Virus record (IMG/VR): IMGVR_UViG_3300014208_000027 | Span: 64,001-128,000 of that record | DNA from: a virus | Lineage: Duplodnaviria > Caudoviricetes | DNA: 64,000 nucleotides | Direction: 5' to 3' (one strand) | Shown here: piece by piece, positions 7,458 to 57,775 of the stretch | Position numbering within the stretch: the stretch's first letter is position 1 | How the letters are laid out: each line of letters opens with the position of its first letter | Made by a program: the position numbers and the translations under genes | Notes under the pieces: generated by a model | Told to the model about the DNA's origin: nothing | Databases searched by the model: none | The model's input: the letters and a program-made list of their open reading frames with translations, nothing else

Positions 7458-8633
7458 ATGCTAAGAGCCTATAAGACAGAATTAAACCCAAATAATAAAC
7501 AAAGGACGCTTCTGTTAAAGCACGCTGGCGCAGCCAGGTGGGCTTATAATTGGGGTTTAGCTAAAAAGATTGAAGAATATCAATCAACCGGAAATTCTCC
7601 TTCTGCAATTGATTTACACAAGCAGTTGAATTTACTGAAGAAAACTGAGATATCTTGGATGTATGAAGTCTCCAAAATGGCTCCGCAGGAGGCTTTGAGA
7701 AACCTTGATATAGCTTTTAAGAACTTCTTTAGAAATTGTAAGAAAGGTTCTAAACAAAAAGGTTTCCCAAGATTTAAATCTAAGAAAAATGGAGTTGGTT
7801 CGTTTACCTTTTCCATGCAAGTCCGAGTAATTAATGGAAAAATCCAGTTACCAAGATTAGGAAAGATTCGACTAAAAGAAACTGACTATTTTCCAACTAA
7901 TACTAAGATTAGGTCCGCAACCGTTTCGGAAAAAGCTGGCAGATGGTTTGTATCAATTTTAGTTGACGAAGAATTTACCAAAGAGCAAGGTGGTGAAATT
8001 ATTGGAGTTGATGTTGGAATCAAGACTTTGGCAACTTTGTCCAATGGAATTATTTTTGAAAATTCAAGGTCTCTAAAAAAACACGAAAGGAAACTGCGAA
8101 GACGAAGTAAATCAGTTTCTCGCAAAAAGAAAGGATCAAACAATAGAAAGAAAGAAGTCAAGAAGTTAGCGAAGCTACACTACAAAATCTCTTGTACCCG
8201 AAAAGATTCAATTCATAAAGCTACGACTGCGATAACCAAGCAGGCAAAAGTTTTGTGTATCGAAAACTTGAATGTTTCCGGCATGATGAAAAATCACAAG
8301 CTAGCGAAATCATTGTCGGATGCTTCAATGGGAGAATTTTTAAGACAACTGGAATATAAGGCAAGCTGGGCAAATATTCCAGTAATTAAAGCTGATCGAT
8401 TTTTCGCTAGTAGTAAGTTGTGTTCGAATTGTGGTTGTCTCAAAGAAACATTAAGTTTAGGTGAACGAATTTATTGTTGTGAACATTGCAATCTTTCTAT
8501 TGACCGAGACTTAAATGCAGCAATTAATCTAAAAACCTTGGCCGGTAGTTTACCGGACAATAAAAACGACTCTGGAGGCACTCGGTTGGTGTCGGTGAAA
8601 GAGGAAAAAAGCACAATTAGTAACAATTGGTAA
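7458..8633 (+). CDS. tnpB: TnpB RNA-guided endonuclease
   Basis: N-terminal HTH (AYKTELNPN..Q...L...AG.ARWAYNWGL), RuvC triad intact (IGVDVG, CIENL, DRD.NAA.NL), zinc finger C..CG...C..C. Confidence 0.95.
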   Translation: MLRAYKTELNPNNKQRTLLLKHAGAARWAYNWGLAKKIEEYQSTGNSPSAIDLHKQLNLLKKTEISWMYEVSKMAPQEALRNLDIAFKNFFRNCKKGSKQKGFPRFKSKKNGVGSFTFSMQVRVINGKIQLPRLGKIRLKETDYFPTNTKIRSATVSEKAGRWFVSILVDEEFTKEQGGEIIGVDVGIKTLATLSNGIIFENSRSLKKHERKLRRRSKSVSRKKKGSNNRKKEVKKLAKLHYKISCTRKDSIHKATTAITKQAKVLCIENLNVSGMMKNHKLAKSLSDASMGEFLRQLEYKASWANIPVIKADRFFASSKLCSNCGCLKETLSLGERIYCCEHCNLSIDRDLNAAINLKTLAGSLPDNKNDSGGTRLVSVKEEKSTISNNW

Positions 8634-57290: not shown

Positions 57291-57454
57291 ATATGATTTA
57301 AAGATAGAGGGTGGATGAAGGCGATTTCCTGATTTGTAAAGCTAAATATTAGGATTAGTGGGCCACGACTAGGTAGAACAATTCCAATTTCATTGTAAAA
57401 ATAATGTGAAGGATTAACATTTTTAACTAAATCACCAACTTCAAATTTAGTCAT
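57287..57454 (-). CDS. SH3/KOW-like microprotein, 55 aa (MTKFEVGDLVKNV...EIGIVL...)
   Basis: Hand-translated, family motif. Confidence 0.7.
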   Translation of the reverse strand: MTKFEVGDLVKNVNPSHYFYNEIGIVLPSRGPLILIFSFTNQEIAFIHPLSLNHI

Positions 57455-57489
57455 AACATTTTCCAAGGCATAAAAAAAATAACAAATAG

Positions 57490-57561
57490 TCCGCCATCAA
57501 GGTTATGCTCCTTGTACTATCGCTTATAAGGCGATTGCTTTACTGATTAAGCTAATGGCGA
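57490..57561 (-). tRNA. tRNA-Ile(UAU), 72 nt, non-canonical T-loop, CCA not encoded
   Basis: Acceptor TCGCCAT/ATGGCGG, D stem GCTT/AAGC, anticodon stem ATCGC/GCGAT with loop CT-TAT-AA, T stem CAAGG/CCTTG, discriminator A. Confidence 0.85.
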
Positions 57562-57575
57562 ATATTAAATTTTAG

Positions 57576-57648
57576 TAGCTCCTATCGGATTCGAACCGAT
57601 ACTTGACAGATTTTGAGTCTGTTGCCTCGACCGTTGGGCTAAGGAGCC
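57576..57648 (-). tRNA. tRNA-Leu(CAA), 73 nt, short variable loop, CCA not encoded
   Basis: Acceptor GGCTCCT/AGGAGCT, anticodon stem ACAGA/TCTGT with loop CT-CAA-AA, T arm ATCGG-TTCGAAT-CCGAT, A73. Confidence 0.92.
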
Positions 57649-57660
57649 ATTCATAGAATA

Positions 57661-57688
57661 ACATTAGCATGGTTTGAACAGTTGTCAA
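57661..57688 (-). promoter_or_regulatory. sigma70-type promoter for the tRNA pair
   Basis: TTGACA-N16-TAATGT with TGc, 12 nt upstream of tRNA-Leu. Confidence 0.68.
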
Positions 57689-57775
57689 GTGATAAGAATT
57701 TTCACAGGCATAAAAAAATAATCTCTTGCCTAATTATCATGTAACTGATACTATACAATAGGAGTATTAAAATAC

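Follow-up and report, generated by a model that had tools for sequence, protein, structure and literature searches.

A phage tRNA-Ile(UAU) gene with a non-canonical D-loop/T-loop elbow that covaries across phage tRNAs

The window analysed here, a 64,000-nt stretch of a phage record from groundwater (203,498 bp, 34% GC, rated complete, with baseplate genes), contains on its minus strand a tRNA-like gene with the anticodon UAU, whose D-loop and T-loop depart from those of canonical tRNAs. This locus raises the questions of whether the gene encodes a working tRNA, whether its elbow is connected with the reading of AUA, and why such an elbow exists.

The tRNA-Ile(UAU) gene and its cassette

ARAGORN called a tRNA-Ile(tat) at 57489-57561(-), and Rfam RF00005 matched 57490-57561(-) with 50.7 bits, above its gathering score of 29. 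The minimum-energy fold of the latter interval was a full cloverleaf with four stems of 7/4/5/5 pairs (z = -3.37). The features of the gene are as follows.

57490..57561, minus strand: tRNA-Ile(UAU), 72 nt, CCA not encoded (ARAGORN, Rfam, fold, identity elements)
57541..57548, minus strand: D-loop AAUCAGUA with A18-G19; A15 at 57547 without a Levitt partner (direct reading; covariation)
57526..57528, minus strand: anticodon UAU in the loop CUUAUAA, without a U33-C34 step (ARAGORN and direct reading)
57515..57518, minus strand: variable loop AGUA, 4 nt, last base A48 (direct reading)
57503..57509, minus strand: T-loop A54 G55 C56 A57 U58 A59 A60 (AGCAUAA) (direct reading; covariation)

In the D-loop, A18 and G19 lie at 57544 and 57543; in the T-loop, A54, G55, C56, U58 and A60 lie at 57509, 57508, 57507, 57505 and 57503. 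The first pair is U1-G72 and the discriminator is A73. The anticodon, A18-G19, AGCAUAA, the intact stems and U1-G72 had been reported in a preliminary description of this DNA, and all of them were confirmed by direct reading, ARAGORN, Rfam and the fold. Two features had been overlooked there: the 15-48 Levitt pair is missing, with A15 facing A48, and A73 is followed by CUA. Compared with a canonical class I bacterial or phage tRNA (RF00005), including phage tRNA-Ile(UAU), the gene shares the cloverleaf, U8, A14, G19-C56, U33, R37 and G53-C61, but differs in A18, A54, G55, U58, A60 and the absence of R15-Y48. Thus G18-U55, U54-A58, Y60 and R15-Y48 are all replaced, and G19-C56 is the canonical elbow contact that is kept. 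The rewired elbow is not an assembly error, since a contig from a second groundwater study (2022) spans 57334-57732 with 0 differences.

Using the bacterial tRNA-Ile identity element table (PMC9976931) for comparison, we found that A73, C4-G69, U12-A23, C29-G41, A35, U36, A37 and A38 are present, while the minor D-loop determinant G16 is replaced by U16. Position 34 is U34, where bacterial tRNA-Ile has G34 or lysidine-modified C34.

Rfam found two tRNA genes in the 203-kb genome, and a relaxed ARAGORN search over the genome returned noise only, with no further tRNA. The other features of the two-tRNA cassette are as follows.

57576..57648, minus strand: tRNA-Leu(CAA) with a canonical elbow and a 5-nt variable loop, 14 nt upstream of the Ile gene (ARAGORN, Rfam)
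57661..57688, minus strand: sigma70-type promoter-like site TTGACA-13 nt-TGCTAATGT, 12 nt before tRNA-Leu (motif class count)
57459..57478, plus strand: imperfect 20-nt direct repeat (TTTTC..AGGCATAAAAAAA), copy 1, flanking the cassette
57699..57718, plus strand: imperfect direct repeat, copy 2, flanking the cassette

The class of the promoter-like site was counted at 20 sites in the genome versus 0.9 in shuffles; a strict promoter and terminator scan of the minus strand found nothing and missed this site. The site would drive tRNA-Leu(CAA) and then tRNA-Ile(UAU), and the two genes are probably co-transcribed. Among the public sequencing runs listed as containing the sequence, none was of RNA, a result that bears in neither direction on expression. 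The cassette lies antisense between two large genes, and in 10 related phages the slot holds no tRNA. The direct repeat around the promoter and the two tRNAs may have been left by an insertion or may serve as a signal in transcription, and no joint skipping the cassette was found among the contigs. A Plastid-ycf2 match from Rfam, which fell below its gathering score and overlapped tRNA-Leu, was rejected.

Several minor observations concern the cassette and other parts of the window. The 5-nt variable loop of tRNA-Leu(CAA) replaces the long arm of bacterial leucine tRNAs, and a similar short-arm Leu(CAA) occurs in one of our collected loci (L055). Both window tRNAs end in A73-CUA rather than CCA. 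The motif CTAATTA is found at 57730-57736 (+), upstream of the gene at 57776, and an IS605-type TnpB gene (7458-8633, +) and a GIY-YIG-type homing endonuclease gene (58687-59805, +) lie among the structural genes.

Covariation of the elbow across phage tRNAs

The preliminary description had regarded the loop changes as coordinated and had proposed covariation in homologous phage tRNAs as a check. We searched with the anticodon and the T-loop fixed and the D-loop left out of the query. The results showed 36 matches, of which 4 were real tRNA-Ile(UAU) genes, and all 4 of these viral genes carried A18-G19 on very different stems. A metagenome scan yielded 3 more rewired tRNA-Ile(UAU) genes. Among the 8 distinct rewired UAU tRNAs, 98.8% of the stem positions were paired, and 20 of 21 pairs were changed on both sides. 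In a second scan, A18-G19 was fixed and positions 54, 55 and 58 were left free; 42 of the 43 distinct phage tRNAs obtained had G55, and their 54/58 letters were U/A (18), A/U (16), G/G (5), C/A (3) and A/A (1).

A structure-only parser was then applied to all collected loci and gave 789 distinct tRNAs. Counted as sequences rather than as independent events, with kin sharing letters and loci sampled by pattern, A18 was found in 125 of 127 G55 tRNAs, C56 was kept in 125 of the same 127, and U58 occurred only together with A54 (60/60). The position-18 labels were checked by eye, as the automatic labels were wrong for AGG and AAUAGG loops and had to be corrected. The same covariation was present in the subset of 656 tRNAs picked up by none of the search queries. 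The coordinated changes thus do covary in homologues, which argues for a maintained and folded tRNA.

The parsed tRNAs also included single-swap intermediates, with A18/G55 alone in 50, A54/U58 alone in 17, and G54/G58 with G55 in about 22. In the 43 tRNAs that combine both swaps, as the window gene does, A60 was found in 42 and a 4-nt variable loop in 40, and the R15-Y48 pair was found in none of the 43, compared with 436 of 507 canonical tRNAs. Because A60, the 4-nt variable loop and the loss of 15-48 accompany the swaps, the whole tRNA core appears to be remodelled, not two pairs only. We infer the tertiary pairings A18-G55 and A54-U58 from this covariation. G18, U54, U55 and A58 have been treated as near-universal; natural covariation reveals a second solution that keeps only G19-C56, and which may indicate the elbow contacts that translation really needs.

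How such an elbow might be built is suggested by riboswitches. Where a T-loop of the FMN or cobalamin riboswitches has G at position 2, the intercalating base is an adenine in 99.96% of cases (bioRxiv 10.1101/2022.12.26.521914). The window T-loop resembles these YGNRA loops in its G at position 2, its 7-nt length, its two predicted extruded bases and, as judged from sequence and covariation, its intercalated A, but it has A/U instead of Y/A at positions 1/5, and its receptor is a tRNA D-loop. By analogy, A18 would intercalate between 57 and 58 and contact G55 like the adenine receptor of the YGNRA loops, A54-U58 would stand in for U54-A58, A60 and the loss of 15-48 would remodel the core, and the RNA would fold into an L. 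It is mainly the face formed by G19-C56 that is recognised by the ribosome, RNase P and T-boxes (PMC4810234). Since this pair is kept, the window tRNA should present its ordinary flat face to the ribosome, to RNase P and to the CCA enzyme. In a review of T-loop conservation, the A54-A58 of eukaryotic initiators is the sole exception listed, and no G55, A18 or U58 is included (PMC7912444); our literature search, which lay mostly outside subscription journals, found no description of an A18/G55/U58 tRNA elbow or of non-canonical phage T-loops. Within that search, the elbow is an undescribed version of the tRNA core, and its function is predicted.

An alternative is that the gene is decaying, or that its RNA does not translate and instead acts as a decoy for tRNA-binding defence proteins. 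The unencoded CCA, the weak U1-G72 pair and the missing 15-48 pair of the window gene would fit such a gene, as would the failure of ARAGORN to detect some rewired family members (L013, L033). Against it, all stems are intact with compensatory changes, isotype identity elements fit the anticodons across the family, CCA is encoded in most of the family members listed, and a promoter-like site is present; a decoy, moreover, should retain the motif that it mimics rather than drop it. We regard decay or a decoy role as very improbable, and the RNA as probably a folded and working tRNA.

Anticodons, decoding and charging

To what extent the elbow is linked with the UAU anticodon can be judged from its distribution. 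The full module is carried by 16 anticodons and G55 by 31, and a scan blind to the anticodon returned 22 genes, 19 of them Thr(UGU). Canonical-elbow phage UAU tRNAs gave at least 119 matches, representing at least 84 distinct genes, versus the 8 distinct rewired ones, and one related phage has a tRNA-Ile(UAU) with a canonical elbow. Since most phage UAU tRNAs have normal elbows, the elbow is not part of a TilS bypass, and the connection with UAU and TilS implied by the preliminary description is not supported. That description had also called UAU rare, which is correct for bacterial chromosomes but not for phages, in which it is common; by itself, this anticodon is nothing unusual in a phage.

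The elbow could still be supposed to adjust decoding, letting U34 read AUA but not AUG. This idea is compatible with the rewired UAU genes, with the inspection of the elbow in the A site (PMC4810234), and with the lack in the window tRNA of both sites at which the nuclease Cash, described below, cuts host tRNA-Ile(CAU). It conflicts with the spread of the module over other anticodons, chiefly Thr(UGU), with the many canonical UAU tRNAs, and with the finding that a UAU tRNA with a canonical body already tells AUA from AUG (PMC3919564). We consider such tuning highly improbable, and we are confident that the elbow is independent of the UAU anticodon.

The stems of the rewired UAU genes were no more similar to each other (identity 0.449) than to those of canonical UAU genes (0.446), and the nearest neighbour of the rewired gene in L013 was a canonical UAU gene (85%). 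Together with the 16 anticodons, this suggests from sequence comparison that the module arose repeatedly in phage tRNAs. An origin of the UAU genes from rewired Thr(UGU) through G35A was rejected, as the stem identity was 0.40, below that to canonical UAU.

The G55 elbow is a minority type among phage tRNAs: at loci not selected for the module, 16 of 306 tRNAs lacked UUC and 3 had G55. In 185,579 prokaryote genomes the module gave 2 matches, one in a prophage and one in a short tRNA-array contig, a count that applies to the single fixed geometry scanned and so does not imply absence from cells. Among cultured phages, Aeromonas phage phiWae14 carries an unannotated tRNA-Thr(UGU) with the full module (L372 7994-8065, corresponding to LC778249.1 about 62909-62980). 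Salicola phage SCTP-2 has both single-swap types in unannotated tRNAs, including a Lys with A18/G55 and a Thr and a Pro with A54/U58 (L371 6801-6873, 11994-12065 and 19887-19959; MF360958.1). A blastn search of cultured phages with the window tRNA found no full-length relative, and those that started from L036, L013, L351 and L343 gave no relative carrying the module. Because rewired genes can escape annotation, as in phiWae14, L013 and L033, phage tRNA sets are likely undercounted. Amber (CUA) tRNAs were also seen in arrays that hold rewired tRNAs (L351 7229-7303; L334), and a contig of 18% GC carries a tandem duplicated rewired tRNA-Ile(UAU) (L346 3469-3677), whose second copy is one base short at the junction of the variable loop and the T-stem.

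For the window gene itself, the predicted path to decoding is as follows. Maturation of the tRNA would rely on the host's RNase P, 3' trimming and CCA addition, and charging on a UAU-tolerant host IleRS; its unmodified U34 would read AUA much better than AUG, giving a TilS-independent capacity for the 1207 AUA codons of the phage. An unmodified U34 is a strong reader of AUA and a weak one of AUG both in B. subtilis (PMC3919564) and in Mycoplasma mobile (PMC3575796). For UAU to be charged, the IleRS must have a basic residue, Arg or Lys, where the E. coli enzyme has Trp905, although an enzyme of the eukaryote type might also serve; IleRS of the E. coli type, with Trp905, is poor at charging UAU (PMC3575796), which counts against charging should the host enzyme be of that type. 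The window tRNA resembles the TilS-independent tRNA-Ile(UAU) of M. mobile (PMC3575796) and of the B. subtilis tilS suppressor (PMC3919564) in its UAU anticodon, its Ile identity elements and its predicted lysidine-free reading of AUA; it differs from them in being phage-borne, with no cognate IleRS gene and a non-canonical elbow, and neither paper mentions such loops. In the phage genome we found no TilS-family, IleRS, CCA-adding or poly(A) polymerase, or TruB gene.

Of the Ile codons, 29% are AUA (20 per 1000 codons, in 186 of 209 ORFs), and in this respect the earlier view of an AUA-rich genome stands. The share falls, however, inside the A-ending share of the four-fold boxes (0.28-0.40), and it is not higher than in relatives without tRNA-Ile(UAU) in the slot (0.19-0.40); the genome is thus rich in A and T in general, not in AUA specifically. 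The window gene is a real phage tRNA and most likely reads AUA. The fuller reading, in which it is a working AUA-reading phage tRNA-Ile on an alternative elbow and the elbow is a general, anticodon-independent module of phage tRNAs, appears likely.

Possible reasons for the elbow

TrmA, TruB and TrmH make T54, Psi55 and Gm18, respectively (for TruB, PMC4810234), and an elbow with AGCAUAA and A18 cannot receive these modifications. The expectation that the window tRNA might evade T-loop-recognising enzymes or nucleases is borne out to the extent that the three target bases and the UUC nuclease motif are gone from its sequence. One such nuclease is Cash, a Schlafen enzyme belonging to type III CRISPR systems. 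It cleaves the UUC motif on the 5' side of U55, and single changes of U54 or U55 abolish the cutting (PMC13462974). Cash cuts 28 host tRNAs, with tRNA-Ile(CAU) cut in both loops, and the same paper leaves open whether phage tRNAs are cut (PMC13462974). The window tRNA-Ile(UAU) has neither site, with no UUC in its T-loop and no UC in its anticodon loop. Other phage tRNAs drop UUC by different covarying routes, namely A19-U56, U19-A56 and C19-G56, and such multiple routes are what diversifying selection would give.

Evidence against escape was also found. The tRNA-Leu(CAA), the only other tRNA of the phage, retains both the UUC of the T-loop and the U33-C34 step, and as Cash cuts 28 host tRNAs, two tRNAs could not rescue translation. 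Nor is UC missing more often from the anticodon loops of non-UUC tRNAs (56/136 vs 175/520, p = 0.11). Escape from UUC-reading host nucleases may nevertheless be the main selective cause of the elbow across phages; we place this at somewhat under an even chance because the neighbouring tRNA-Leu is canonical. A broader proposal, which we offer tentatively, is that phages repeatedly evolved a second complete tRNA core (A18-G55, A54-U58, A60, no 15-48) that functions in translation with an unmodified T-loop and is immune to UUC-reading nucleases such as Cash, and that the window gene would be a nuclease-proof replacement of the host AUA decoder.

Phage T5 offers parallels. Its tRNA-Lys reportedly lacks the host motif that the PARIS defence nuclease reads, and the defence-evading changes of T5 tRNAs are said to lie in the anticodon arm. 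Likewise, T5 tRNA-Tyr is described as lacking the host motif read by the nuclease of retron-Eco7 PtuAB (Azam 2024, as cited in PMC13462974). Unlike the tested T5 cases, the window tRNA is changed in the elbow, and its escape is predicted, against Cash. Whether phage tRNAs are cut could be addressed directly with the module, which phiWae14, a phage in culture, carries in full.

Nuclease escape could also be a side effect of modification independence, in which the elbow would fold stably without T54, Psi55 and Gm18 and so work at once in the infected cell, or in a host without TrmA and TruB. The loss of all three targets and the phage's own lack of TruB agree with this, and unmodified riboswitch T-loops share the G at position 2 and the intercalated A (bioRxiv 10.1101/2022.12.26.521914), while UAU is itself a modification-free solution (PMC3919564). 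The neighbouring Leu, however, is canonical, as are most tRNAs of the same arrays, and we judge modification independence rather unlikely as the main cause. A tRNA body that is both modification-independent and nuclease-resistant would suit engineered tRNAs.

Finally, the elbow might be an equally good alternative reached by compensatory drift in redundant phage tRNAs, the phage having merely picked up a cassette that carries it. The stepwise intermediates, the side-by-side occurrence of rewired and canonical genes, the empty slot in the 10 relatives and the canonical UAU tRNA of one relative are all consistent with drift. On the other hand, the same seven T-loop letters, A60 and the 4-nt variable loop recur on unrelated stems, the stem identities given above point to repeated convergence, and the fixed geometry occurred only twice in the prokaryote genomes, once in a prophage. 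We regard drift as unlikely.

As a further observation on T-loop diversity, A19-U56, U19-A56 or C19-G56 instead of G19-C56 was seen in L069, L269, L299, L311, L165, L066 and L293, in many cases in Arg(UCU/UCG) tRNAs and in some in Pro or Ala tRNAs. In the arrays of L308, L318, L334, L337, L341 and L293, the fraction of parsed tRNAs with a non-UUC T-loop ranges from one third to all of them.
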